From: Flavobacteriales bacterium
GTDB taxonomy: Bacteria > Bacteroidota > Bacteroidia > Flavobacteriales_D > Crocinitomicaceae
Assembly: GCA_003331365.1 (NCBI GenBank)
Contig: QOQC01000001.1
Coordinates: 1 to 53,201 of the forward strand
DNA length: 53,201 bases
Direction: 5' to 3'
The position numbers were made by a program, and so were the translations under genes. The notes beneath the pieces are model-generated. The model was given only the letters and a program-made list of their open reading frames with translations, made no database searches and was not told the DNA's origin. Shown one piece after another: positions 22,527-35,681 of the stretch. Each line of letters begins with the position of its first letter. The stretch's first letter is position 1.

Positions 22527-22545
22527 AAAGCCCTCAGGTGGCTTT
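22527..22545. terminator. Weak hairpin between convergent genes
   Basis: Stems aaagcc and ggcttt flank a 7-nt loop. It overlaps the stop of the GH13 gene. The flanking T-run is short, so support is modest. Confidence 0.35.
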
Positions 22546-24412
22546 ACCTCAATTCTAAAACATATGAAGTCTTGCCTTTGACTTCGAATGTTTTTGATAA
22601 ATCTATATCATAGGATTCGTGATTTAAAACATCATAAGCCAATTTACGATTGGAAATGTTTTGTTTAAATCGAGATAAATTCAGGGTTCGGTTTTCTGGA
22701 GAATTATTGATGATTACCATTACTGTCTCCTCACTATCAAACCGAAAATAAACATATACATTTTGTTTTGGTACGTAGTGCATCATTTTTCCCTGGTGAA
22801 TCACTTTTTTGTTTTTTCTCCAATTCAACAAGTTTTTTGAGAATTCAAAATAACTGTTTTCTCTTTCTGTCCTTTGCTCTGAATCAAATGCATTGTGTTT
22901 GTCCTCTTTCCATCCTCCGGGAAAATCTCTACGAATATCGCCGTCACCATAATTCCTCTTCCCCTGCATGCCAATTTCACTGCCGTAATAGATTTGAGGT
23001 ACCCCTCTCGTAGTTGATATTAGGGTCATGGCTAATTTATAATCCTCAATATTCGGAAATTTTTCATTAAATCTTTCCGTATCGTGGTTTTCGAAAAAAA
23101 CACATAAGTTTCTGGGATTGGTAAATAAATAGTCGTTGATAAAGTTCTCATATACTCGCAGCATACCTTTGTTCCAGCTTTGCTCTGGCTCCTCAAAACA
23201 CTTTGACATGCCATCCATTAATGTGAAATCCATCAAATAAGGCAATCCCGAGTTGTAATCTTGGATTGCCGCTACAGGGCTTTCCCTTTGCCAAAATGCA
23301 ATTTGTGCTTGGTCCAACATCCAAACCTCTCCTACAATGGAAAAATTTGGATATTCATTCATCATAGCATGAGTCCATTTTGAAATACCCTCCTTAGAAT
23401 TGAAAGAATAGGTATCCACTCTGATTCCATCTAAATCAGCTGTCTCAACCCACCAAATGGAATTTTGTATGAGGTAATTCAAAACCAATGGATTGTCTTG
23501 GTTTAAATCAGGCATGGTTTTTACAAACCAGCCGTCTGTGCACTCTTTATAATCAATTTCAGACCTGTAGGGGTCCATGTGGGTCGTCATTCTAAAATTG
23601 GATTGGGTAAACTCTGGAAATTGATGAAACCAATCTTTTGTAGGAGTATCAAACATCATCCAGTGCATATAGCCCCAGTGATTTGTAACCACATCTTGAA
23701 TGATTTTTATTCCTTTTTCGTGTGCATGTTTTACCAAATTTACATAGTCTTGATTTGACCCAAACCTGGGGTCAATTTTATATACATCGCTTTGAGCGTA
23801 TGTGTGATAAGAGTACGTACTGTCATTATCCTCCATCAGTGGAGTTGTCCAAATTGCAGTTGCTCCCAGTTCATGAATGTAATCTAAGTGATTGATAATG
23901 CCTTCAACATCTCCGCCATGGCGTCCTCCAGGATTGCCTCGATCCATTTTTTCATAAACACTATCATCAGAATCATTATCTGGATTTCCATTTGAAAATC
24001 GATCCGGCATAATTAAATAAATAACATCAGATTGATCAAATCCTTTCCGGAGTTTTGACTCTTCTCTTCTCTCCTTTAATTCAAAATCATATGAAAGCTT
24101 TTTTTTGCTTTTTTTTGCTGAGGATTGAAATACCAACTTATAGAATCCAGGATTTTTGTTTTCCGTATCGACAGTTACAAAGAGAAAATTTGGGTTCTCT
24201 GTTTTCCTTATTTTTAATATGTTCAATCCCTCACAAGTAACTTCGTATTCTCCAATTTTTTCTCTATGAAAGAGGATTTCAACCTCAGAGTGCTCCATGC
24301 CAGACCACCAATTAGATGGCTCGACATGATTAAAAATTTGCATTTGTGAATTTGAATATTGAGCAATAGTCAAAACAAAAATAAATAAGAAGATATTTAA
24401 AGAACATTTCAT
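22544..24412 (-). CDS. GH13 alpha-amylase-family enzyme (cyclomaltodextrinase/neopullulanase, SusA-like)
   Basis: 622 aa with a signal peptide. GH13 regions DVVTNHWG, GIRVDTY, GEVW and FFENHD. It has N- and C-terminal cyclomaltodextrinase-like beta domains. Confidence 0.9.
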   Translation of the reverse strand: MKCSLNIFLFIFVLTIAQYSNSQMQIFNHVEPSNWWSGMEHSEVEILFHREKIGEYEVTCEGLNILKIRKTENPNFLFVTVDTENKNPGFYKLVFQSSAKKSKKKLSYDFELKERREESKLRKGFDQSDVIYLIMPDRFSNGNPDNDSDDSVYEKMDRGNPGGRHGGDVEGIINHLDYIHELGATAIWTTPLMEDNDSTYSYHTYAQSDVYKIDPRFGSNQDYVNLVKHAHEKGIKIIQDVVTNHWGYMHWMMFDTPTKDWFHQFPEFTQSNFRMTTHMDPYRSEIDYKECTDGWFVKTMPDLNQDNPLVLNYLIQNSIWWVETADLDGIRVDTYSFNSKEGISKWTHAMMNEYPNFSIVGEVWMLDQAQIAFWQRESPVAAIQDYNSGLPYLMDFTLMDGMSKCFEEPEQSWNKGMLRVYENFINDYLFTNPRNLCVFFENHDTERFNEKFPNIEDYKLAMTLISTTRGVPQIYYGSEIGMQGKRNYGDGDIRRDFPGGWKEDKHNAFDSEQRTERENSYFEFSKNLLNWRKNKKVIHQGKMMHYVPKQNVYVYFRFDSEETVMVIINNSPENRTLNLSRFKQNISNRKLAYDVLNHESYDIDLSKTFEVKGKTSYVLELR

Positions 24413-25815
24413 TTCACGTATTTTTTAACAAAACCATTACTATATACAATTAGGTATATTCCGTGAAAAGAATCAATCTCATTAATTGTCTTTCCATTAA
24501 GGTCAATAACACTTATTATTGTCGATTCAGGTAATAATTCCTCTAACCCAATATTACAAGGGGGCTCTAACGATAAGTAATCTTCAACCTGAAAACTTGC
24601 CGTCGCATTTCTTGTAGTAATATAGTCGTTCAACGAATAAGAGACATGGGCCCCAAAAGCATCTTCTATAGCATTTAAAAAATCAAGATCAGAAAACCCA
24701 TAATCGAGCTCCTTATAATCGTCAGCGAGGGCGGCATCAGAAATCATTGATTGAGTATTGATTAGTTGGCCTATTAGGTCAGTGGGGTTAAAATGATTCT
24801 GAATCAACTGGTGCATGTACATGTTGAAGCGATCCCGAAAATAAGGAACATTCATAATCCTTTGGTAAAGAGGCCTTTCATTCTCCCCCCAGAAATATAT
24901 GTTCTTATTTGCCCAATCCTCATCAAACCAATCTATACCAAAGGTGTTGTCCATGTCATATTGAATAAAAACAAACTTTCCATCAGAGGGTCTTTGATAC
25001 AAATAGAAATTATTTTTATTCACTGCATGACCATCCCAATGACCGATTAAGATTTCCAAAGCTAAAGTCTTGAGATAGATTTCCACGTCAAAAACATTCC
25101 AAATAGCACACGGAAAATCCTCATCCGATGAGTTATTGATGACTTCAATCAATGAAATTAACCCGGTGTAATCGTTTTCTGTTTTATTGGTTTTTAATTC
25201 ATAGATATCCGCGTATGCTTGCTGATTGTTTCCCAAATAATTGAAGTCTGCACCCCAGAAACACTTGTAAAGATTCCCTTCGTCGTCGTCGATAAACCTT
25301 CGCTGAAGGAATTCATCGTCAATATGTTCAACATTAATGTAAAGACCCTTATACTCTTCGTTGATAAAAAGTTTTACATAACTGGTTCTAGAGCAAGGCA
25401 AGTCAGCCGAGGCCAGAATTTGGTTTGAAAGCCGGGATCTCATAATAGAGACATCATTGTGCTCTCCATTCAAGTTCATTTTTTCTAGTCCGTTCCATTT
25501 TTGCCCTTGGACAAAGGCATTAAAGGCCACTTTAAAAGACTTTTTCTCGGCATTCCTAGAGGTATTGCCCCTCAAACGAAATCCCACATTAGGAATTGTT
25601 TCTGTAAAGCTAGAGGAAATATATGTGAAACTTGCTGGATATTCATAATCAGAATAAAGACTATCTGTCAAAATAGTCTCCATATATTCGGGATTGATCT
25701 CTATTGAAATGCTAGCAACCTCATCTTGAAGAAAAGCATCATTATTAGATGGGTGTACCATTTGTGAAAAAACGCCCTTAACGAGAAGCATAAAAAGAAA
25801 AAGAACTCTATACAT
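24409..25815 (-). CDS. CotH-family atypical protein kinase, secreted
   Basis: 468 aa with a signal peptide. LNGEHNDVSIMRSRLS, INEEYKGLYINVEHIDDEFL, GNLYKC, HWDGHAVNKNNFYLY and IQYDMDNTFG match CotH motifs. It overlaps the downstream GH13 by 4 nt and the upstream GH13 by 1 nt. Confidence 0.85.
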   Translation of the reverse strand: MYRVLFLFMLLVKGVFSQMVHPSNNDAFLQDEVASISIEINPEYMETILTDSLYSDYEYPASFTYISSSFTETIPNVGFRLRGNTSRNAEKKSFKVAFNAFVQGQKWNGLEKMNLNGEHNDVSIMRSRLSNQILASADLPCSRTSYVKLFINEEYKGLYINVEHIDDEFLQRRFIDDDEGNLYKCFWGADFNYLGNNQQAYADIYELKTNKTENDYTGLISLIEVINNSSDEDFPCAIWNVFDVEIYLKTLALEILIGHWDGHAVNKNNFYLYQRPSDGKFVFIQYDMDNTFGIDWFDEDWANKNIYFWGENERPLYQRIMNVPYFRDRFNMYMHQLIQNHFNPTDLIGQLINTQSMISDAALADDYKELDYGFSDLDFLNAIEDAFGAHVSYSLNDYITTRNATASFQVEDYLSLEPPCNIGLEELLPESTIISVIDLNGKTINEIDSFHGIYLIVYSNGFVKKYVK

Positions 25816-28574
25816 TATTGTAAGACAACTATTTGAGAATAATTCACATCCTTTGATGTGATTTTCAAAATATAAGATCCGGGAGCAACACTTTGAACGT
25901 TTATCTTCTTTTGAATAGAACCGTCATAAGGGATAAGCTCCTCTTTACTAACGATTCGACCCTGACTATCCAATAGCTGATATTGAACTTTTTGGTATTC
26001 TAGATTAGAAATCTGGATATTGATATTCTCATCACTCGGGTTGGGAAAAACATGAATATTTCCATATCCGTTTTGAACAATTCCAAGTTCTGAAAATTCA
26101 AAATTGACAGTTCCAATATTGACATCCGTATATACCCTAAAATCACCTGGAAGAAGTTGAATCGATGCATTAACATCTTCTACATAAATACTATCTCCAG
26201 AAAAATATTCATACCACCAGCCTGTATGGTGAAATGTTGGAATTCCCGACTGATCCACAATGTTAAAGTTGGTCAAGGTAATGGAATTCATGTCGGAATG
26301 GTTGTGTCTTAATCGTTTCACCGAACCCCCTAAAGAATAATCCACATCTAAAGTTTGGAAAGTCGGATAGTTTCTTTTCAAATGGTTCAAGGCTGCATAG
26401 ACATTATACAACTCTCTCCTTTTTTCTTCTTCGAAGTATTCCCAAAGAACGGGTTTATTGCACACACGACATGGTTGATCAATAGATATATCGTATCCCA
26501 ATTCACCAAACTGCCATATCATTTTAGGTCCTGGTTGAAGCAAAAATATAGTCGCCGCCGCTCTCATTCTTCCAAGGGCAACCAGCTCATCCTGAGCATC
26601 ATGATCTGCATTTATAGAGTTTCCAAATGAAATATTTTTGAACATCATTCTTTCTTCATCATGACTCTCCATATACGTTACCAAGTGTGGTACACTCCAT
26701 GACCTATTCAAGTATACTCCATTACTCAAATTAGAGCTGTTCGGATAACCCATGCCGCCTTCTTGATAAGCGTGAGTCATATTTCCCCAAAGCATCATTC
26801 CGTATTCAGCAAGTTCTTTTTCTTCGTTATTTCCAGACCAATGCTCCAAAATTATATATGTTTCTGGATGAATAGACCATATCGTATCTGCCATTCTTTT
26901 AATGAGTGCAATTCTTTCAGAATCGTAATTGTTCGTTCCGCTTCCAAAACCCTTTGTAAAATCAAAACGAAATCCATCAATATGATACTCATCAACCCAA
27001 AATAAATTAACCCGGTCTATGTAGTCTTTTGTAGCTTGGGTTGTATGATCGATGTCATACCCCCAGCAATAGGGTTCATGAGGACAGTCTACATTAAACC
27101 ATGGACTATTTTGAGCCGGTTTTTCGGTTGAGGCATCCCAATACATTCGAAGTAATGGACTCTGACCAAATGTATGGTTCAAGACCATATCTACTATTAC
27201 TGCAATTCCTCTAGAATGACATTCGTCCACAAATTCCTTGAACTTATCAGGGGTTCCGTAGTATTTATCTAAAGCCATGTGAAAAGAGGGGTTGTACCCC
27301 CAGCTTTCATTGTTTTCAAATTCGCCTGGAGGCATTAATTCAATCGCATTAATACCCAGGTTTTCAAGATAATTCAATGTATCTATCAATACCTGATAAT
27401 TACGATCGTGCGTGAAGTCCCGAACGAGAAGCTCATAAATAATAAGGTCTTTATTTTCGGGCTTTTCAAACCCATCATTTATCCAATCATATTCACTACC
27501 ACCTGGCGTAACCAAAGATATAAATCCACTCGTCAAGCCTTCTGGATACGGGTGTAAATTTGGAAATGTAGCTTCAGGGATGTTCCCGTCGTTATACGGG
27601 TCTAGAATCAATTCACTTAAGGGATCTGCAAGTTTGAGTTCACCATCAATATAGTATTGATATCCATAAGTTTGTCCTGGGTTCAATCCAGACACCTCTA
27701 TCCACCAAGTAGCATAATCGGTTCCTCTATTCATATGATAATCACTTGATAAATTCCAATTATTAAAGTCGCCAATAAGGTATATGTGCTCTTTATCTGG
27801 ACCATATAGTTTAAAAAGAATGGTTGAATCATTTAAATAATTAGCTCCCAATTTTGTAATAGGAGGATCTAATGTCGTTACCTCTGGATTGATCATAATA
27901 CTGATGGTATCATAGGCAAACTCTCCATTGGCCTCTGCAATGGATACAATTTCATGTATTCCTGAAGAAACACTACTGAAATCAAAAAACACTTCGGTAA
28001 CATCTGACTGAGAATCAATCTCTGTTCCGTTGTCGTATAGTAAGATATTACTGGTAATATTAGACTCTACATTTAAAACAAATGTCTCACCAATTTCAAA
28101 CAAGTCTAAATTTTGTGGATTGAAAATAGCACAAACCAATGGGCCATTAACCGGATATATATCATAGTAAATATCACTTCCATCCGAGTCTCTACCGACT
28201 ACACTACAATCAGCATTTCTAAAAACAAAAGCAAGCTGATAAACTTCTGTTCCCGGTGAATAACCATAAAACGTTGGAATATCAATGGTAATTTCAAATA
28301 AATTATTCCCGAGATTGTTCATTAAGACACTTGCATCGGTGGTCCCCCAATTTCCTTGAACAAATTGCCAGCTCGTTGGTGAAGTGCTGGCTTGGGTAAT
28401 AAGCCCCGTATGGCAATACACTTCTGTTTGACCCATCAAAGCACCATTACCTAGAGTTGCATCATATATAATAGATACTTGATCCTCTTGAGTAGGAAAC
28501 GAGGGGCTCAGATTCAAAATCTGAGAATTACCAATAATTGGTAAAAAAAAGAAAAATAATACTAAACGAACCAT
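25815..28574 (-). CDS. Large GH13 alpha-amylase/pullulanase-like enzyme with N-terminal binding modules (CBM48/E-set-like) and a T9SS sorting domain
   Basis: 919 aa. YLIGDFNNW...YGYQYYIDG (E-set). GH13 regions VDMVLNHT, GFRFDFTKG, ILEHW and YMESHDE. The C-terminus is HVFPNPSDENINIQIS...GSYILKI. Confidence 0.9.
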   Translation of the reverse strand: MVRLVLFFFFLPIIGNSQILNLSPSFPTQEDQVSIIYDATLGNGALMGQTEVYCHTGLITQASTSPTSWQFVQGNWGTTDASVLMNNLGNNLFEITIDIPTFYGYSPGTEVYQLAFVFRNADCSVVGRDSDGSDIYYDIYPVNGPLVCAIFNPQNLDLFEIGETFVLNVESNITSNILLYDNGTEIDSQSDVTEVFFDFSSVSSGIHEIVSIAEANGEFAYDTISIMINPEVTTLDPPITKLGANYLNDSTILFKLYGPDKEHIYLIGDFNNWNLSSDYHMNRGTDYATWWIEVSGLNPGQTYGYQYYIDGELKLADPLSELILDPYNDGNIPEATFPNLHPYPEGLTSGFISLVTPGGSEYDWINDGFEKPENKDLIIYELLVRDFTHDRNYQVLIDTLNYLENLGINAIELMPPGEFENNESWGYNPSFHMALDKYYGTPDKFKEFVDECHSRGIAVIVDMVLNHTFGQSPLLRMYWDASTEKPAQNSPWFNVDCPHEPYCWGYDIDHTTQATKDYIDRVNLFWVDEYHIDGFRFDFTKGFGSGTNNYDSERIALIKRMADTIWSIHPETYIILEHWSGNNEEKELAEYGMMLWGNMTHAYQEGGMGYPNSSNLSNGVYLNRSWSVPHLVTYMESHDEERMMFKNISFGNSINADHDAQDELVALGRMRAAATIFLLQPGPKMIWQFGELGYDISIDQPCRVCNKPVLWEYFEEEKRRELYNVYAALNHLKRNYPTFQTLDVDYSLGGSVKRLRHNHSDMNSITLTNFNIVDQSGIPTFHHTGWWYEYFSGDSIYVEDVNASIQLLPGDFRVYTDVNIGTVNFEFSELGIVQNGYGNIHVFPNPSDENINIQISNLEYQKVQYQLLDSQGRIVSKEELIPYDGSIQKKINVQSVAPGSYILKITSKDVNYSQIVVLQ

Positions 28575-28621
28575 TAAAAAAGAAAAGGCCCAAGTTTACC
28601 CTGAGCCTTTTACAAATTAAT

Positions 28622-29347
28622 TTATTTCTTGATAAATCTTCCTGATACAGCTCCTTGGCTGTTTGATACTCTGTATAAGTATAAACCAGGATTCAAATTT
28701 TCAATATTCAAAATTGTAAGCTGATTCATAGACTTAGTCGATAGTCTTTTCCCGCTCATATCAAACAACTCAATAGTTGAAGAATATGAATTGGCGTTTT
28801 CAAAATCAACATACAATTCTTTCTGAGCTGGATTTGGGTAAACATTTAGAGTGCCCATTATCCCCTCTTCAATTCCAACATTACAAGGATCACATCTATC
28901 CCAACAAAATGTGTAGGTCATATCAGCGGTAGGTACAGTTAACACTCGATTGATGTTCCCTGAACCATCATCAATTCCACATCCTCCTTCTGCAATTGCA
29001 GAGGTGTCTATTCCTTCATTGGTTCCCCAGTCTCCGTTCACAAATTTGTAAAGTTGTTCTGATCCGGCTGCGGAAGCATCGTACATTACCTCAATTGACC
29101 ACATGCCATTGCCCATATCCATCATTGCGGAATTGGCATCAGAAGGAGTCCAATCGGCCATGGCGCCTGCAGCGACTGAAGCACCGGTAGTTCCAAAATT
29201 TCCTCCAACTCTGATTCCATTTGGGTCTAGAGCATTGCCGGCAGCAAGATAATTAGTAATATCTACCTGCAGAGTAACTGTCACCATTTGACTGAAAGCA
29301 AAGCTTCCTACAAATAAAAAAGATAGTAAAGTGTAAAATTTTCTCAT
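28622..29347 (-). CDS. Small T9SS cargo protein with a putative carbohydrate-binding beta-sandwich module
   Basis: 241 aa with a signal peptide. VTVTLQVD...IRVGGNFG...WSIEV...YKFVNGDWGTNE resembles starch/glycan-binding modules. The C-terminus is NVYPNPAQKELYVDF...GLYLYRV. Confidence 0.55.
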   Translation of the reverse strand: MRKFYTLLSFLFVGSFAFSQMVTVTLQVDITNYLAAGNALDPNGIRVGGNFGTTGASVAAGAMADWTPSDANSAMMDMGNGMWSIEVMYDASAAGSEQLYKFVNGDWGTNEGIDTSAIAEGGCGIDDGSGNINRVLTVPTADMTYTFCWDRCDPCNVGIEEGIMGTLNVYPNPAQKELYVDFENANSYSSTIELFDMSGKRLSTKSMNQLTILNIENLNPGLYLYRVSNSQGAVSGRFIKK

Positions 29348-29515
29348 AAATTAAAATTTAATTAATACTGATTTAGCAACAACAAGATATGAAAAAGCAA
29401 TTCAAAACAGAAACTTTATGGTGCCTTAAACGCACTACAAGGTTTTAGTGTTAATAAATAGAATATGAAACTTTAATTAAAATCGCTTAATTTAAGGCTC
29501 GTCTACCCCATTAAA

Positions 29516-30547
29516 ATGAATCAGAAAATTACGCTCAAACAAATTGCAAAAGAATTGGATGTCTCCATCTCCACAGTTTCCAAAGCGCTTAAGGACAGCA
29601 AAGAAATTGGCGAGGAAACCAAAAAGAAAATACAGGCATTTGCAAAATACTACAAGTACAGACCCAACCCTCTAGCTGTTAGTTTAAAAAACAATACTGC
29701 CAAAATTATTGGTGTCATCATTCCCGAAATTGTCCATCATTTTTTTGCTGAAGTAATTAATGGGGTTGAAAAAACCGCTTCAGAAAATGGCTACACTGTG
29801 ATTATCACCTCATCAAATGAGCAATTTGAAAAAGAAGTTGCAAACATAAGTTCCCTATCGGATAGTTTAATTGACGGTTTTATTATTTCTGTTTCCAAAG
29901 GAACTTTAAAAGAAAAGAATTATGAACATATTTCTGACACTATTGAATTAGGCATCCCCGTGGTTCTCTTCGATAGAACGATCGATGATATCGAGTGTGA
30001 TAAAGTCATGGTGAACGATAGGCTTGGCGCTTATGAAGGGACATCTAAACTTATCAATAAAGGAAGAAGAAAAATAATATTAATTACGACCGAAGACTAT
30101 ATCAGCATTGGTAATGAGAGAACCCAAGGCTATATTGAGGCACACGATGAAGCCAATATAAATTACCAACAAGATTTGATCATTAAGTGTCAAGAAAAAG
30201 GTTCCCGGGAAAAGAACTTGAGTTCATTGGAAAAAAATTTAGAAAAATCATTAACACTAAATTCTGACATTGACGGCATAATTGCTGTAAACGAATCATA
30301 TGCGGCAGTAGCTTTAAAAGTTCTTGGAAAATTAAATATTAAGGTCCCTGAAAATGTCTCTTTAATTTGTTTTTCTGATGGAGTAATATCTCAATTTTCC
30401 ACACCACCAATTAGTGCCCTAAGTCAGCACGGAGAGCTCATGGGAAGGAAGGCTGCCAATCTTCTTATTGAACGTCTTAAAAACCCTGAAAGAGATTTCC
30501 AAACTGACGTTATCGAATGTACCTTGATTGATAGAAATTCAATTTGA
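29516..30547 (+). CDS. LacI-family transcriptional regulator
   Basis: The N-terminal HTH is ITLKQIAKELDVSISTVSKALKD...YRPN. A periplasmic-binding-protein-like sugar-sensor domain follows. It is divergent from the glucan operon. Confidence 0.9.
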   Translation: MNQKITLKQIAKELDVSISTVSKALKDSKEIGEETKKKIQAFAKYYKYRPNPLAVSLKNNTAKIIGVIIPEIVHHFFAEVINGVEKTASENGYTVIITSSNEQFEKEVANISSLSDSLIDGFIISVSKGTLKEKNYEHISDTIELGIPVVLFDRTIDDIECDKVMVNDRLGAYEGTSKLINKGRRKIILITTEDYISIGNERTQGYIEAHDEANINYQQDLIIKCQEKGSREKNLSSLEKNLEKSLTLNSDIDGIIAVNESYAAVALKVLGKLNIKVPENVSLICFSDGVISQFSTPPISALSQHGELMGRKAANLLIERLKNPERDFQTDVIECTLIDRNSI

Positions 30548-30671
30548 ATGGAATAATAACCAGCAACTAATTGGTAATGGAATCATTTAATATTGTGAAT
30601 CTAGGGTATAAATCCTCTTTTTTCACTTTCATATACATACTAAAAAATGTATCTTTCAAACCCATTAAAAG

Positions 30672-32528
30672 ATGAAGAAAATGGAACATGAAACAATACA
30701 TGCTTACCTAAAGGATGTCATCAAAAATATGCCTGATGATTGGTTGAATTTAACGACTCATCGTATTGATCTTTATGATGAGGCTCAAGCAAAATATCAA
30801 TATTTAAAAGAATTCAAGAGCTTATTCGATTTAGGAATTTCAGATACAAAATCATTGAACGCATTACCAACAGCTTTTGACTATATTCGATTGGGGCACC
30901 CTTTATCCTGTGTTTTAGAATGGATGATTGCATCCCTCTACAATGTTCCACCTAGTCATGTCATTAGTTTTGATTCAAAATCAATGCCCCTTCTTTCGAT
31001 TTTAAGAAGAAATGCATTATTGAATAAAAAGACAAGGATTCTATATAATGAGTCAAACCGTGGATGGTCTTTACCAACGGAAATATTAACTCAGATATAT
31101 GGTTACAAATTTACCTTGCAAAGCATTCAAGAAAACGAGACCGCTCCGAATTTTAATGGAAGCACCATTGTTATTTCGAATCAAGAAAATCTATCTGATT
31201 TTAATTTACATGACGATTATGACTTTATCATCAACTTTCACGAAAGCTTGGGAAGTATCGTTTTAGTAAATGGTAAACAGAATGACGAATATGTTTCGGA
31301 AATTCAACATGTAAGAAGACGAGAAACAATTGCCATGACCCCAGCTAATTCGTTAGCCGCAATCAATAATACAATTAATGGTAGTCCAGTCAAAATTAAC
31401 AATTCAGAAATTGAAAAAAATAAAAATAAGGTAATTGAAGAAATCCAGCAGATTACCAAAACAAGTGGAAAGCCACTTGTAGCCTCTAGTGGCTTATCCA
31501 TTCAATATGCCATCCTAATGGGACTTATTCATGAAGCAAAAGCAACATTGGGTGCTAAAAAAATTCAAATTATTGTACCAACAAATTGTTATGGGGGAAC
31601 GAATGATCAGGCTCGTCGAGTTGCTACGGTTATTGATGGTGTTGAAATTACAGATCTACATGTAGATGGAGAAAGTGATATGGTATACAGTATTGATCAA
31701 GTTTTAGAACAAGTCGCAAAAGATGATGCCGTTCCATATATCATCGCGGAAATACCAACCAATCCCAGGGTAGAAGTGCCCAATTTGTTAGCGCTCAAAA
31801 AAGTACTAGGCAAAAAGAGGTTGACTGGGTCAGGTGCAGAAGCAATTGAACCTGTATTTATCTTGGACCAAACATTTTGTCCAAATATTCACTTTCTAGG
31901 TCAAAGTGAAATTCTATCTGAAATCAAAGCGATATCCTATGTAAGTGGGTCAAAATTTCCAAGTGGAGGAAAATGTACCGCCGGTTATTGTGTGGCTAAC
32001 GAAAAAGCAGAAGGATTAATGGAAAATATAGGGCTTCACCTTTCTATTCAGGATAATGAAGCTACTCCTCTTCAGTATGAAATATTAGCGAAGCAGCTAC
32101 CCTCGATGAATGAACGAATTAAAAAAGCCTATATAAATACCAGAACGTTCGTAAACTTCATTGAAAAAACTTTACCTGAAGCAAAAATTAATTTTGTTTC
32201 TGAAGTATTGGCCAAACAAGGCTTTACACCTTCTGTATTTTCATTAGACCTTCCAGCGAAAGGAAGTACGGATGAAGAAAAAGAATTATATAAAAGGGAT
32301 TTAAACCTCAAGCTCATCAATCTTATGATTGAAAATATCCCTGAAGAAAGTAAGCATTGTGTTAGCTATGGGCAGCTCAAAGGTTGTTACTGGACTATTC
32401 CAGCCACCTCCACTCAAGGAACAACAAAAGAAGGGGATAAAGACTATATTGCCCGTGTTGCTTTATCACCAAAAATAAACCTTGAACGACACAAAGAAGT
32501 ATTTTTAGATTTTGTTAAAGGTCTATAA
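30672..32528 (+). CDS. Diverged Cys/Met-metabolism-type (fold-type I) PLP-dependent enzyme with an N-terminal degenerate duplicate domain
   Basis: 618 aa. The C-terminal ~360 aa align by eye to cystathionine synthase/lyase-type enzymes: ASSGLSIQYA, CYGGT, AEIPTNP, LDQTFCPN, VSGSKFPSGG (Schiff-base Lys) and VSYGQLKG. The N-terminal ~250 aa carry YIRLGHPLSCVLEWMIASL and a lysine-less copy of the fold. Confidence 0.5.
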   Translation: MKKMEHETIHAYLKDVIKNMPDDWLNLTTHRIDLYDEAQAKYQYLKEFKSLFDLGISDTKSLNALPTAFDYIRLGHPLSCVLEWMIASLYNVPPSHVISFDSKSMPLLSILRRNALLNKKTRILYNESNRGWSLPTEILTQIYGYKFTLQSIQENETAPNFNGSTIVISNQENLSDFNLHDDYDFIINFHESLGSIVLVNGKQNDEYVSEIQHVRRRETIAMTPANSLAAINNTINGSPVKINNSEIEKNKNKVIEEIQQITKTSGKPLVASSGLSIQYAILMGLIHEAKATLGAKKIQIIVPTNCYGGTNDQARRVATVIDGVEITDLHVDGESDMVYSIDQVLEQVAKDDAVPYIIAEIPTNPRVEVPNLLALKKVLGKKRLTGSGAEAIEPVFILDQTFCPNIHFLGQSEILSEIKAISYVSGSKFPSGGKCTAGYCVANEKAEGLMENIGLHLSIQDNEATPLQYEILAKQLPSMNERIKKAYINTRTFVNFIEKTLPEAKINFVSEVLAKQGFTPSVFSLDLPAKGSTDEEKELYKRDLNLKLINLMIENIPEESKHCVSYGQLKGCYWTIPATSTQGTTKEGDKDYIARVALSPKINLERHKEVFLDFVKGL

Positions 32529-32587: not shown

Positions 32588-32609
32588 AAAGGGCGCAAAT
32601 GCGCCCTTT
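32588..32609. terminator. Bidirectional intrinsic terminator
   Basis: An A10 run precedes the gggcgc / aaat / gcgccc hairpin, and ttta follows it. It lies between the convergent PLP-enzyme and Trx-T9SS genes. Confidence 0.8.
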
Positions 32610-32632: not shown

Positions 32633-34144
32633 TTATTTGATTACAACATTTGAATTTGTAGTTAATCCATTAGCTTTAATGGAAACCACGTATGTTCCTT
32701 TCGCAAATCCTTCTGTAGAGAAAGAAATAACTTGAGTTCCGTTTGCTCCTGAAGCAACTTGAGTACCCAAAACTCTTCCTTGAAGATCCATGATTGAGAT
32801 ATAGGTATCAGAAGTATTTTCAAAAGATATATTTACAACATCCGTAGCTGGGTTTGGATAAACCTCAACATTTTGAGCTGTCAAATCTTCTAAAGAAGCT
32901 GATAGGTTTTTAACCAAACCTAAATCTGAACCTCCAAAGTCAGCAGCAGTCATTGATAGAATGGTTGAACCATTATTATCAGAAACGCTCCACGAACCGT
33001 CAGTTCCTCCCCATTGAGATGCTCCAATTCCATCACCATAGTAATCATATACGGTAAATGTGTAACAATCTACAGCAGGTAGTGAGATAGGCCATGAATA
33101 AGCTGTGTTATTCGTTAAAGCATTTGTAGGATCCGCAGGAGGGGGGAAATTTCCAGTGTTGAAGTTTCCGGCAACATTTTCGTTTCCTTCCGACCAAATA
33201 ACATCTCCATTTGAATTTGTCAACTCCATATAAGACTCATCAGCATAATCGTCTGTCAAAAACTCGACTGTAATTGAGCTATTCGTTTCTTCAGCTGTGC
33301 CAATAGTTTGAGACAATGAATTATTCGAAGCATCATCATCTGCTGAAGTAATTTCAATTGTATAAGTTGTAGTAGTTGACGGAGTAACTGTTCCAATAGC
33401 CACATTTTCCATTTCATAAGTAGCTAGGTTTCCTGACCAGTTATAAGAAAGAACAGAAGTTCCTCCATCCATAACTTCAATTGTAGCAGATGTCAAAGCT
33501 TGGTTACCCATGTTTTGAAGATCTACACTCATTGAAACTGGAGTTCCACATGAAACTGTTTCACCGGTATATCCCAATAAAGCTCCATTCACATCTCCAC
33601 TTGCAGAAGGACAAGCAGCGGCCCCGCTATAATGAGCAGTGGCAGATAGCTGACCTGATTCATTTATGATTCTGTTTGGACAGATAGTATAAATTATTGG
33701 CCAGTACGGCAACTGGTACAACTGAGCAATGTTATCGTCATCACAGATTGGGAATTGTGTACCTGTAATCCAATCACCTTGAGTATTTGAACCTGTACCT
33801 TCTAAATCCGCTTGAGTAGTAGACGCATCTCCTTCAAACCACAATACCACAACATCATCAGTTGTATTAGCAGAAACTCCAGGAGCACCTGCAGGACCAT
33901 GATTTGCCCAAAGATCTTCTAAGGCACCTCCTTGGTGGTAGCTCCAACATGGTGGGCACCAAGTTGCACTGATATCCATAATCACAGTGTAACCTTGATC
34001 TAGGTAATCATATAGATTGTGTGAGTTCCCGTTGATATCTACAGTAGTAAAATCAGGGGCAATACTTCCATCTGGAAGCTGTGCAATTGAATTGCTCGCA
34101 AATAATGTTGAACAAAGAATTGCTGATAGTAGAATTTTTTTCAT
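32633..34144 (-). CDS. Secreted thioredoxin-fold (TlpA/redoxin-like, WCPPC) multidomain protein with T9SS sorting domain
   Basis: 503 aa with a signal peptide. APDFTTVDINGNSHNLYDYLDQGYTVIMDISATWCPPCW. The middle section has CARDB-like and YGDG-containing beta domains. The C-terminus is EVYPNPATDVVNISF...GTYVVSI. Confidence 0.7.
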   Translation of the reverse strand: MKKILLSAILCSTLFASNSIAQLPDGSIAPDFTTVDINGNSHNLYDYLDQGYTVIMDISATWCPPCWSYHQGGALEDLWANHGPAGAPGVSANTTDDVVVLWFEGDASTTQADLEGTGSNTQGDWITGTQFPICDDDNIAQLYQLPYWPIIYTICPNRIINESGQLSATAHYSGAAACPSASGDVNGALLGYTGETVSCGTPVSMSVDLQNMGNQALTSATIEVMDGGTSVLSYNWSGNLATYEMENVAIGTVTPSTTTTYTIEITSADDDASNNSLSQTIGTAEETNSSITVEFLTDDYADESYMELTNSNGDVIWSEGNENVAGNFNTGNFPPPADPTNALTNNTAYSWPISLPAVDCYTFTVYDYYGDGIGASQWGGTDGSWSVSDNNGSTILSMTAADFGGSDLGLVKNLSASLEDLTAQNVEVYPNPATDVVNISFENTSDTYISIMDLQGRVLGTQVASGANGTQVISFSTEGFAKGTYVVSIKANGLTTNSNVVIK

Positions 34145-34213: not shown

Positions 34214-34906
34214 ATGCAAGCACAAATTATTATATTCTCTGGGGCGGGAATGAGTGCGGAAAGTGGTATAAAGACCTTTCGAGACTCTAATGGTTTGTGG
34301 GAGGATTATAACATTCAAGAGGTGGCTACCCCAGAAGCCTGGAAACACAATTCAGATTTGGTGACTGATTTTTACAACCAACGGAGAAAACAAATAATCA
34401 ATTCCAAACCAAATCAAGCACATTTTGCTATCGCCGAATTGGAAAAGAAAGCTGAAGTTCGAATCATTACTCAAAATATTGATGACCTTCATGAAAGAGC
34501 GGGATCGAAAAATGTATTGCATTTACATGGCAATATTCGATATGCAAAATCATCGGGGCCAAATCAAGAAAAAGAATATTATCCAATCGAAGGCTGGAAA
34601 CTTTCTAAAAATGATAAGTGCCCTGAAGGTTATCGCCTGCGACCTCATGTTGTTTGGTTTGGGGAGAAGGTACCAATGATGGAAAGGGCAATTGATGAAA
34701 TGAAGAGTGCAACACACTTCATTGTTATTGGATCTTCACTTCAGGTTTACCCTGCCGCGAATCTTTTATCCTTCTGTCCTACAAATGCGGAAAAGTGGAT
34801 TATTGATCCAAAAGCAGATGAATTTAACTATGGAAACGGATTTCGTTTAATAAATCAAAAAGCAGTTGATGGTATTCAATCCTTAATGAGTGAACTTAAA
34901 CTTTAG
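34214..34906 (+). CDS. cobB: SIR2-family NAD-dependent protein deacylase
   Basis: 230 aa. GAGMSAESGIKTFR, TQNIDDLHERAG, HLHG, RPHVVWFGE and GSSLQVYPA. Confidence 0.9.
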   Translation: MQAQIIIFSGAGMSAESGIKTFRDSNGLWEDYNIQEVATPEAWKHNSDLVTDFYNQRRKQIINSKPNQAHFAIAELEKKAEVRIITQNIDDLHERAGSKNVLHLHGNIRYAKSSGPNQEKEYYPIEGWKLSKNDKCPEGYRLRPHVVWFGEKVPMMERAIDEMKSATHFIVIGSSLQVYPAANLLSFCPTNAEKWIIDPKADEFNYGNGFRLINQKAVDGIQSLMSELKL

Positions 34907-35681
34907 CCTTTTTTTCCTGCTCTTTGATAAAAAGCTCTATAGCACCTACCATAGAAGGGGCTTTAGGATGTGGCGCCCTGATGTTTGGCTTTAAACCATT
35001 CTTAATAGCTGCAGTAGCTGTTGTTGATCCAAATGTTGCAATCAAGGTTTTGTTTTGTTCAAATTCAGGGAAATTCTTCAAAAGAGATTCTATTCCTCCA
35101 GGACTGAAGAAAACCAAAACATCATAAAAAACATTTTCTAAATCAGAAAGATCAGCTGCTACAGTTCTATATAAAACAGATTTGGTGAATTGTATGTTAT
35201 TTTCAGTGAGTGTGTTTGGGATTACATCTCTTAAGATATCAGTACACGGCAATAGTATGTTTTCAGATTTGTGCTTTTTGAGCACATCGATTAAATCATG
35301 AATATTTTGATTACCAAAAAATATTTTTCTTTTTCTGTAAGCAACAAACTTCTGCAGATAAAGAGCTACTGCCTCAGAAATACAAAAATACTTCATTGAA
35401 TCAGGCACCTCAAACCTAGTGGCTTCTGCCATTCTGAAAAAGTGATCCGCTGCTACTTTTGAGGTTAAAAGAACACCTGTAAAGTCGGCAAGATTTACCC
35501 TTTGCTCTCTAAACTCCTTAGGGCTCACCCCTTCTACTTTAATAAAAGGTCTGAAATCTATAGTTAAACCTTGTCTTTCAGCAAGCGAAAAATAAGGAGA
35601 TCTATTGCTTTGTGGTTTAGGTTGGGAGACTAGTATTGTTTTTATTGCCAAAACTATTTTATTAAATTCTGTATTAATCAA
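34896..35681 (-). CDS. hemD: Uroporphyrinogen-III synthase (HemD-like)
   Basis: 261 aa. ILVSQPKP...YFSLAE...IDFRPFI...LLTSKVAADHFF...VFFSPGGIESL matches Bacteroidota HemD-family proteins as I recall them. It lies next to DUF4271, which is the usual synteny. Confidence 0.7.
   Translation of the reverse strand: MINTEFNKIVLAIKTILVSQPKPQSNRSPYFSLAERQGLTIDFRPFIKVEGVSPKEFREQRVNLADFTGVLLTSKVAADHFFRMAEATRFEVPDSMKYFCISEAVALYLQKFVAYRKRKIFFGNQNIHDLIDVLKKHKSENILLPCTDILRDVIPNTLTENNIQFTKSVLYRTVAADLSDLENVFYDVLVFFSPGGIESLLKNFPEFEQNKTLIATFGSTTATAAIKNGLKPNIRAPHPKAPSMVGAIELFIKEQEKKAKV

Follow-up and report, generated by a model that had tools for sequence, protein, structure and literature searches.

Cys/Met enzymes, which depend on pyridoxal phosphate (PLP), are obligate oligomers in which each active site uses residues from a neighboring chain. 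What, then, might a single chain of this family gain from what looks like a second, lysine-less copy of its own large domain? The question is raised by a gene in a 53,201-nt stretch of DNA from a Flavobacteriales bacterium of the Crocinitomicaceae (contig QOQC01000001.1, positions 1 to 53,201 of the forward strand; the whole stretch is referred to as the window). This gene encodes a 618-aa protein that an earlier note, made from the sequence alone, had read as an intramolecular pseudo-dimer in which a degenerate copy is fused to a complete Cys/Met-type domain. Here, we find that an architecture of one dead and one live copy is supported at the level of the predicted fold. The protein carries the catalytic residues of the Cys/Met family and departs from that family's one-chain, symmetric-dimer architecture.

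The 618-aa open reading frame (ORF) is present as described, and the C-terminal part of its product (the C-module, residues 263 to 618) is laid out as follows:

30672–32528, + strand: whole ORF, 618 aa plus stop
31458–32171, + strand: predicted live PLP-binding large domain, residues 263–500
Within residues 263–500, + strand: phosphate loop S272-S273-G274-L275 and ring-stacking Tyr in Y307-G308-G309
Within residues 263–500, + strand: E360-I-P-T-N364-P365 and D399 (pyridine nitrogen)
31953–31955, + strand: codon of K428, the predicted Schiff-base Lys, in S425-G-S427-K428
32172–32525, + strand: C-terminal domain, residues 501–618
Within residues 501–618, + strand: C563-V-S565-x-G567-Q568, P577-A-T-S-T-Q-G583 and R595

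Several lines of evidence support the reading of residues ~263–618 as a divergent, catalytically complete γ-family PLP domain of fold-type I. First, the blocks that had been aligned by eye to the family are all found in the protein, i.e., ASSGLSIQYA at residues 271–280, CYGGT at 306–310, AEIPTNP at 359–365, LDQTFCPN at 398–405, VSGSKFPSGG with Lys428 at 424–433, TPLQYEIL at 465–472 and VSYGQLKG...ARVAL at 564–598, as is the N-terminal block YIRLGHP at 71–77. Second, in a Pfam search of the C-terminal part, PF01053 was the sole family and scored above its gathering score, a marginal pass (residues 256–500 against profile positions 59–269; 28.3 bits, cutoff 27). Third, we compared a profile of the C-module by hhalign with a canonical 403-aa cystathionine γ-synthase/γ-lyase (CGS/CGL) encoded at locus L027 of a Cryomorphaceae metagenome-assembled genome (MAG), which matches NCBIfam NF005871 with an E value of 1e-153. 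The two aligned with 93.7% probability over canonical residues 74–403, and in this register S272-S273-G274-L275 pairs with SGM, Y307-G-G with YGG, E360-I-P-T-N-P with ETPTNP, D399-Q-T with DNT, S425-G-S-K428 with SVTK, S565 with the Ser of ESLGG, P577-A-T-S-T-Q with PATMTH, and R595 with the Arg of LIRLSVG. R595 is thus aligned as the α-carboxylate-binding Arg of the family motif vRlSvG. Fourth, while a PDB sequence search with the single sequence gave no significant match and a flavobacterial profile gave only a weak match to BesB, a full-length profile of 22 family members retrieved 82 PDB sequences at E ≤ 1 (best E 5e-9), and all 60 of the 60 matches listed are Cys/Met-family enzymes. Fifth, a full-length AlphaFold2 model (predicted local distance difference test, pLDDT, 69; predicted template modeling score, pTM, 0.73) has BesB, methionine γ-lyase (MGL), CGL, CGS and CndF as its top PDB matches in Foldseek, with E values of about 1e-8. 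Finally, in an alignment of 22 sequences from bacteria and eukaryotes, with relatives down to 22–25% identity, the catalytic residues of the C-module are all invariant. Because the residues that fall in the canonical register are invariant throughout, the C-module has what is required for binding PLP and an α-amino acid. Within the protein, conservation is highest in the C-terminal domain, with invariant residues at 71 of 118 positions.

One segment is missing from this domain. The C-module has no Y-x-R/NPT segment of its own; the hhalign alignment begins directly past it, at canonical residue 74, and the sequence upstream of the helix at residues 244–262 is variable and rich in gaps. The description of a complete Cys/Met-type domain therefore stands for the catalytic residues and the Schiff-base Lys, and fails for this N-terminal segment. 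The only such segment lies, as the earlier note had it, about 190 residues farther upstream, where Y71-x-R73 precedes the putatively dead copy. The parts of the N-terminal region (the N-module, residues 1 to 262) are as follows:

30672–30860, + strand: family-specific helical N-terminal extension, residues 1–63, with P21, W24 and T28 conserved in bacteria and eukaryotes
30861–30941, + strand: Y-x-R loop (D70-Y71-I72-R73...P77) and the next helix (L82-E83), residues 64–90
30942–31379, + strand: predicted degenerate copy of the PLP large domain, residues 91–236
31308–31343, + strand: H-V-R-R-R-E-T-I-A-M-T-P, residues 213–224, second conservation hot spot
31380–31457, + strand: variable linker and helix entering the predicted live domain, residues 237–262, of different length in different clades

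Residues 64–90 are the counterpart of the canonical segment Y-x-R-x-x-N-P-T...LE..LA, and residues 213–224 align with the loop that precedes the sP.da helix of canonical enzymes. Predicted structure supports residues ~64–236 as a copy of the family's large domain and N-terminal segment that has decayed and become shorter. When the N-module was modeled alone and template-free with AlphaFold2 from a diverse alignment, the model reached a pLDDT of 86.8 and a pTM of 0.85. In a Foldseek search of the PDB, this model had 67 matches at E ≤ 1e-3 (best 3e-6), with probabilities of 0.99–1.00 and template modeling scores of about 0.5 across nearly the whole query. The matches are Cys/Met chains except for one other type-I aminotransferase and one integrative model. 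Moreover, the strands at residues 97–100, 120–125, 147–151, 163–170, 185–190 and 194–199, followed by helices at 205–218 and 224–236, come in an order that parallels that of the live domain in the predicted structures. The N-module has neither a Schiff-base Lys nor the pyridine-binding Asp, and Asn200 stands at the position of the latter.

At the sequence level, the same region is only weakly tied to the PLP family, and it is here that a different explanation has to be weighed, namely that residues 1–262 are an unrelated Rossmann-like α/β insertion in a single-copy Cys/Met enzyme and that the likeness is generic or artefactual. Residues 1–255 have no Pfam match, and their only NCBIfam match is TIGR01329 (residues 67–125 against profile positions 37–90; E 0.067). 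With a profile of residues 1–262, built from 20 diverse sequences, no more than four PDB sequences came up at E ≤ 10 (E values of 0.75–1.5). A mere 1 of the 20 N-modules touches PF01053 (E 0.017), and hhalign gives the N-module and the canonical CGS/CGL a probability of 1.4% (P 0.036). The halves of the protein also appear dissimilar to each other, since hhalign detected no similarity between N-half and C-half (probability <1%), whether the alignments were shallow and flavobacterial or diverse, and in both local and global mode. Nevertheless, the weak matches all point to one family and to one register. The four PDB sequences are all MGLs and align colinearly from the Y-x-R (MGL Tyr56–59) through the IVDNT strand; TIGR01329 belongs to the same family; and the hhalign alignment runs colinearly from residues 62–236 against canonical residues 57–268, with one large deletion that corresponds to canonical residues of about 195–240, i.e., the DNT...SxTK hairpin that carries Asp and Lys. 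Together with Foldseek matches that cover about the whole query and go to Cys/Met chains rather than to generic Rossmann folds, and with the parallel order of secondary structure, this register makes an unrelated insertion quite improbable in our view. We therefore keep to the reading of a decayed copy, for which sequence support is weak and yet in a single register throughout. The lysine-less, compressed second copy proposed at the outset thus holds as a fold and is borderline as a sequence, and the proposed separate profile search of residues 1–255 gave no Pfam family and a sub-significant match within the expected one. Because the hairpin with the cofactor-binding Asp and Lys and the entire C-terminal domain have been lost, this copy is predicted to be catalytically dead.

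What such a copy has kept is informative. In the 22-sequence alignment, Y71-x-R73 is invariant across flavobacteria and eukaryotes. The N-module residues that are invariant in both clades are T28, D70, Y71, R73, E83 and R217, and P21, W24, L62, F100, S102 and R215 are near-invariant. Among 81 flavobacterial sequences, 180 of the 356 positions of the C-module are invariant compared with 60 of 262 in the N-module. Within the latter, residues 64–84 are the most conserved stretch (16 of 21 positions), the body at residues 85–200 has 15 invariant positions of 116, and the linker at 237–262 has 1 of 26. Conservation of the N-module is concentrated in residues 64–84 and 207–224 (Y207, I211-Q-H-V-R-R-R-E218 and M222-T-P224), a pattern that fits a scaffold presenting two functional loops. 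In human CGL, MGL and Escherichia coli CGS, the PLP phosphate is bound by Tyr and Arg of a Y-x-R motif that belongs to the neighboring subunit. In Pseudomonas putida MGL, the loop with Lys240*/Asp241* reaches the neighbor's site, and we take it to be the loop that aligns with R215–E218. As judged from these alignments, the putatively dead copy retains the elements that are given to a partner, while the elements of its own site are lost. Given that the C-module has the sole PLP site and the N-module the sole Y-x-R, replacement of the partner subunit by the N-module is the simplest reading. Conservation of Y71, R73 and R215–R217 makes packing of the N-module against the C-module as a pseudo-dimer plausible; the pairing could occur within one chain or be swapped between two chains.

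The C-module also has its own equivalent of the trans loop, D461-N462-E463 (in D461-N-E-A-T), which is invariant in flavobacteria and of which the Asp is kept in the eukaryotic clade. This would make sense if the C-modules faced each other, as they would if they paired as a canonical homodimer or tetramer with the N-module as an outer accessory domain, its PLP-like fold being a relic. Such a domain could be imagined to bind a substrate or partner via the R-R-R patch, to regulate the enzyme or to support oligomerization, and the long, variable linker and the poorly conserved body of the N-module would be in keeping with it. By contrast, this arrangement would leave the C-module without any Y-x-R, given that the sequence ahead of helix 244–262 is variable and gap-rich. 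The only Y-x-R sits on the N-module, in the canonical position relative to that module's fold and with a geometry suited to reaching a neighboring domain, and Y71 and R73 are invariant in bacteria and eukaryotes despite the single PLP site. We consider an accessory N-module unlikely. Nevertheless, retention of the trans loop by the C-module suggests that a higher-order assembly may form.

Altogether, we favor a model, which we hold to be probable as a whole, whereby a partial tandem duplication created a fused partner for an enzyme of elimination or replacement reactions. In this model, a γ-family PLP enzyme would have arisen when the large domain underwent partial tandem duplication. The C-terminal copy (~263–618) would have kept the residues for PLP and α-amino acid binding as well as the C-terminal domain, and the N-terminal copy (~64–236) would have lost the Asp/Lys hairpin and the C-terminal domain. 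Very strong selection would hold the two donated loops of the dead copy, i.e., Y71-x-R73 and R215-R216-R217-E218, and the dead copy would take the place of the canonical second subunit and complete the live copy's only active site, so that each 68-kDa chain would carry one PLP. Given the γ-family residues for PLP and an α-amino acid, we assign as the inferred reaction a β- or γ-elimination or replacement on an amino acid. The side chain of the substrate would probably carry an anionic or sulfur-containing group, possibly recognized by the R-R-R loop; this basic loop, which is invariant in the dead copy, points to a distal position of the anionic group.

Several observations weigh against this model. 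The fold assignment of the N-module rests on predicted structure, and the full-length AlphaFold2 model is of moderate quality (pLDDT 69). Taken singly, none of the sequence matches between the N-module and the PLP family is significant (E 0.017–1.5), and the profiles of the two halves lack mutual similarity in hhalign. In addition, the D461-N-E-A-T loop in the C-module would be superfluous in a pure pseudo-dimer. A bolder version of the model, in which this is the first intramolecular pseudo-dimer of the γ-family, retained from Flavobacteriia to protists and acting on a substrate whose side chain is anionic, in a reaction that still lacks a gene, is tentative and, in our estimate, rather doubtful.

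How widespread is this architecture? A homologue search returned at least 8000 proteins; the 120 listed are nearly all 598–627 aa long. The closest listed homologues are 87–90% identical to the protein and typical flavobacterial members 62–66%. A scan of species-representative genomes found the family in at least 595 bacterial species, and the best 80 species matches are to Flavobacteriales together with Roseivirga, Lewinella and a Saprospiraceae MAG. Clustering at 50% identity gave 362 representatives, many of them fragments, and the family is compact. A second, eukaryotic clade shares the N-module and is 23–33% identical over the full length. Its members come from Aphanomyces species, Thraustotheca, Ectocarpus, Sphaeroforma, Creolimax and many MMETSP/EukProt transcriptomes, so that its hosts include oomycetes, brown algae, ichthyosporeans and other protists. 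Repeating the homologue search with a mixed alignment retrieved mostly flavobacterial sequences, and little was gained. Membership of archaea, which a homologue labeled "Euryarchaeota archaeon" (MBU38124.1) would imply, was rejected: the marine contig also encodes PdxS, a nitrilase and an RRM_1 protein, and many of its ORFs lack a Pfam match; because it looks eukaryotic, as from a picoeukaryote, the archaeal label is probably a binning error. Annotations join some eukaryotic members, e.g., in Aphanomyces astaci, to a kinesin motor domain (991–1085 aa), and one 714-aa eukaryotic member is annotated with EF-hand/SPARC domains; these are probably merged gene models.

In the databases, members are named "PLP-dependent transferase", "cystathionine beta-lyase/gamma-synthase", "cystathionine beta-synthase" or "cysteine synthase A". 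The 618-aa protein has no Pfam match to PF00291 or to a CBS domain at E ≤ 10, and the lack of PF00291 leaves the last two names, which occur in NCBI, UniRef and JGI, unsupported. In the literature, we found no characterized member, no description of the architecture and nothing on the eukaryotic locus tags. With regard to the concern that this might be a common, already characterized family, it is common, and no characterized member was found.

These names, the distribution over Flavobacteriia and marine protists, and a basic loop that could bind phosphate or sulfonate would all fit a cysteate synthase, which uses O-phosphoserine and sulfite in the route to the sulfonolipid capnine, or another sulfonate-forming enzyme shared with marine protists. 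However, validated cysteate synthases were picked by PF00291, a domain of fold-type II (PMC11525784), the cysteate synthase CapA is distantly related to archaeal cysteate synthase (PMC10191378), and the CapA tblastn match in Labilibaculum covers only about 295 aa (PMC12927429). By comparison with these published descriptions, the 618-aa protein lacks the defining domain, and because the validated enzymes were selected by PF00291, we judge identity with CapA unlikely and rejected it. In C. ochracea, moreover, the CapA gene adjoins that of the cysteate acyltransferase, whereas neither the Pfam-annotated loci nor the ten neighbor families that recur most often in 80 genome loci include a SulA- or CapB-like gene or any other acyltransferase-like gene. 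We regard a sulfonate-forming function of this kind as very improbable.

Genes of sulfur amino-acid metabolism were seen near some other family members, as hints that fall short of evidence on function. In the Cryomorphaceae MAG, the canonical 403-aa CGS/CGL (L027:3725-4933, + strand) lies about 3 kb upstream of a 614-aa family member, and this coexistence indicates that the 614-aa protein is an addition to, not a replacement of, the ordinary enzyme in that organism. On eukaryotic contigs from Tara, a true cystathionine β-synthase (PALP and CBS domains, 554 aa) is encoded divergently about 1.7 kb upstream of a family member; this could be chance or reflect a shared role in transsulfuration.

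In the window, by contrast, there are no sulfur or amino-acid metabolism genes within about 8 kb of the PLP gene, in agreement with the earlier note. That note had also placed the gene behind a LacI regulator on the same strand after a 124-nt gap, and ahead of a strong bidirectional terminator. The LacI-family gene (29516–30547, + strand) and the gap are as described, and the features that flank the ORF are as follows:

30650–30657, + strand: TATCTTTC, candidate Bacteroidota −7 promoter element read from the sequence, 14 nt 5' of the ATG
32588–32609, both strands: hairpin AAAGGGCGCAAATGCGCCCTTT, 9-bp, G+C-rich, between convergent genes

The octamer TATCTTTC resembles what we take to be the Bacteroidota −7 consensus, TAnnTTTG, and may be a −7 element, a weak call. 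If it acts as a promoter, the gene would have its own promoter, independent of the LacI gene. The ATG that it precedes is itself in some question. Many homologues begin at the equivalent of Met4, for which the ATG is at 30681, and on this ground the real start may be 30681 instead of 30672. At the other end, the hairpin AAAGGGCGCAAATGCGCCCTTT lies 59 nt past the end of the ORF and scores positive as a terminator on both strands; preceded by an A-run and followed by a T-run, it resembles a bidirectional intrinsic terminator, which bears out the earlier claim. An Rfam search of the whole window, and one of the upstream region at a permissive threshold, found neither riboswitches nor RNA elements of other kinds. 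The PLP gene likely has its own promoter and terminator.

Regulation by LacI would require a link that comparison of neighborhoods does not support. We inspected three distant loci by hand and clustered the ORFs of the 80 genome loci. A 70%-identical relative has no LacI gene beside its PLP gene, the same is true of the three loci inspected by hand, which are more distant, and no neighbor family recurs in more than 10 of the 80 loci; we therefore rejected LacI regulation of the PLP gene as unsupported. Instead, the LacI gene faces a divergent, minus-strand starch/maltodextrin cluster (cluster and regulator together spanning 22544–30547), which makes this cluster its likely target. The cluster comprises genes for a cyclomaltodextrinase-like GH13 protein (22544–24412), a CotH kinase-like protein (24409–25815), a 919-aa GH13+CBM48 protein with a type IX sorting tail (25815–28574) and a 241-aa secreted protein, also with a type IX sorting tail (28622–29347). 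The commonest neighbors have annotations that include ECF sigma factor, RNA methyltransferase, acyl-CoA dehydrogenase, ABC-F, LytTR and RecQ, and the neighborhoods gave no clue to function. The PLP gene stands alone and is probably a housekeeping gene of Flavobacteriia.

Downstream of the PLP gene, the minus strand at 32633–34144 encodes an apparently secreted redoxin of 503 aa, in which an AhpC/TSA (thioredoxin-fold) domain is N-terminal and a type IX secretion sorting domain C-terminal. The 70%-identical relative has a similar redoxin gene downstream of its PLP gene, so that synteny is kept on this side and not on the LacI side. Farther along, genes for a SIR2-family deacetylase (34214–34906, + strand) and a HemD-like uroporphyrinogen-III synthase (34896–35681, − strand) are convergent, and their 3' ends overlap by 11 nt. 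In two loci of Tenacibaculum, a gene for a 119-aa cupin_2 protein starts about 3 nt past the stop codon of the PLP gene, and a homologous cupin occurs in a third locus. Upstream in Tenacibaculum is a fatty-acid β-oxidation set (FadB-like protein, thiolase and a 598-aa acyl-CoA dehydrogenase), an arrangement seen at the level of the genus only.

The family is a core gene of Flavobacteriia, which are major degraders of marine organic matter, and is also found in many protists. It is apparently unstudied and misleadingly named, and knowing which reaction it catalyzes could close a gap in the picture of sulfur or amino-acid metabolism in these groups. If the proposed architecture is correct, a fused dead partner would show which parts of a partner are truly needed, and a naturally asymmetric, one-site form would be offered for engineering. 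If the enzyme is just another cystathionine or methionine lyase, interest would be confined to the architecture.

Compared with known systems, the C-module is like the canonical Cys/Met enzymes (PF01053) in its fold-type I and in having SSGL, YGG, ExPTNP, DQT, SxSK, the Ser of VSxG and the C-terminal Arg. However, the canonical chain is a single three-part unit of about 380–430 aa, whereas the flavobacterial protein has 618 aa and an extra, lysine-less copy of the large domain. In canonical enzymes, Y-x-R adjoins its own large domain; here, the dead copy is predicted to lie between Y-x-R and the live domain. The canonical enzyme is a homotetramer, i.e., a dimer of catalytic dimers, with four PLP sites formed from identical chains, whereas in the flavobacterial protein one chain probably supplies both halves of a single site. 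Cystathionine β-synthase and CysK are also PLP enzymes of sulfur amino-acid metabolism, but they are of fold-type II (PF00291), which is absent here. BesB (PDB 9aua; E 6e-9 over 369 aligned columns) and CndF (PDB 8zij/8zif) are among the best structural matches. Like the family described here, they are of Cys/Met type, have N-terminal extensions and are longer than canonical enzymes; unlike it, they sit in natural-product clusters whereas the PLP gene stands alone, and identity is only 12–14%.

The clearest precedent in this fold for a dead-plus-live arrangement is GcvP, the P-protein of glycine decarboxylase. The single-chain form reportedly has roughly 1000 aa and two homologous halves of fold-type I. 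Only its C-terminal half has the PLP lysine, and the active site is located where the two halves meet. In some bacteria, GcvP consists of separate α and β subunits; for the family described here, we saw no split two-gene form. Two fold-type I large domains with one lysine between them, as in GcvP, are found here on predicted structure only, and it is in this predicted architecture that the two are alike. They differ in that GcvP belongs to an unrelated family (the 618-aa protein has no GDC-P Pfam match) and in that both halves of GcvP are full-size, whereas the dead copy proposed here is truncated to about 170 residues and has no C-terminal domain.

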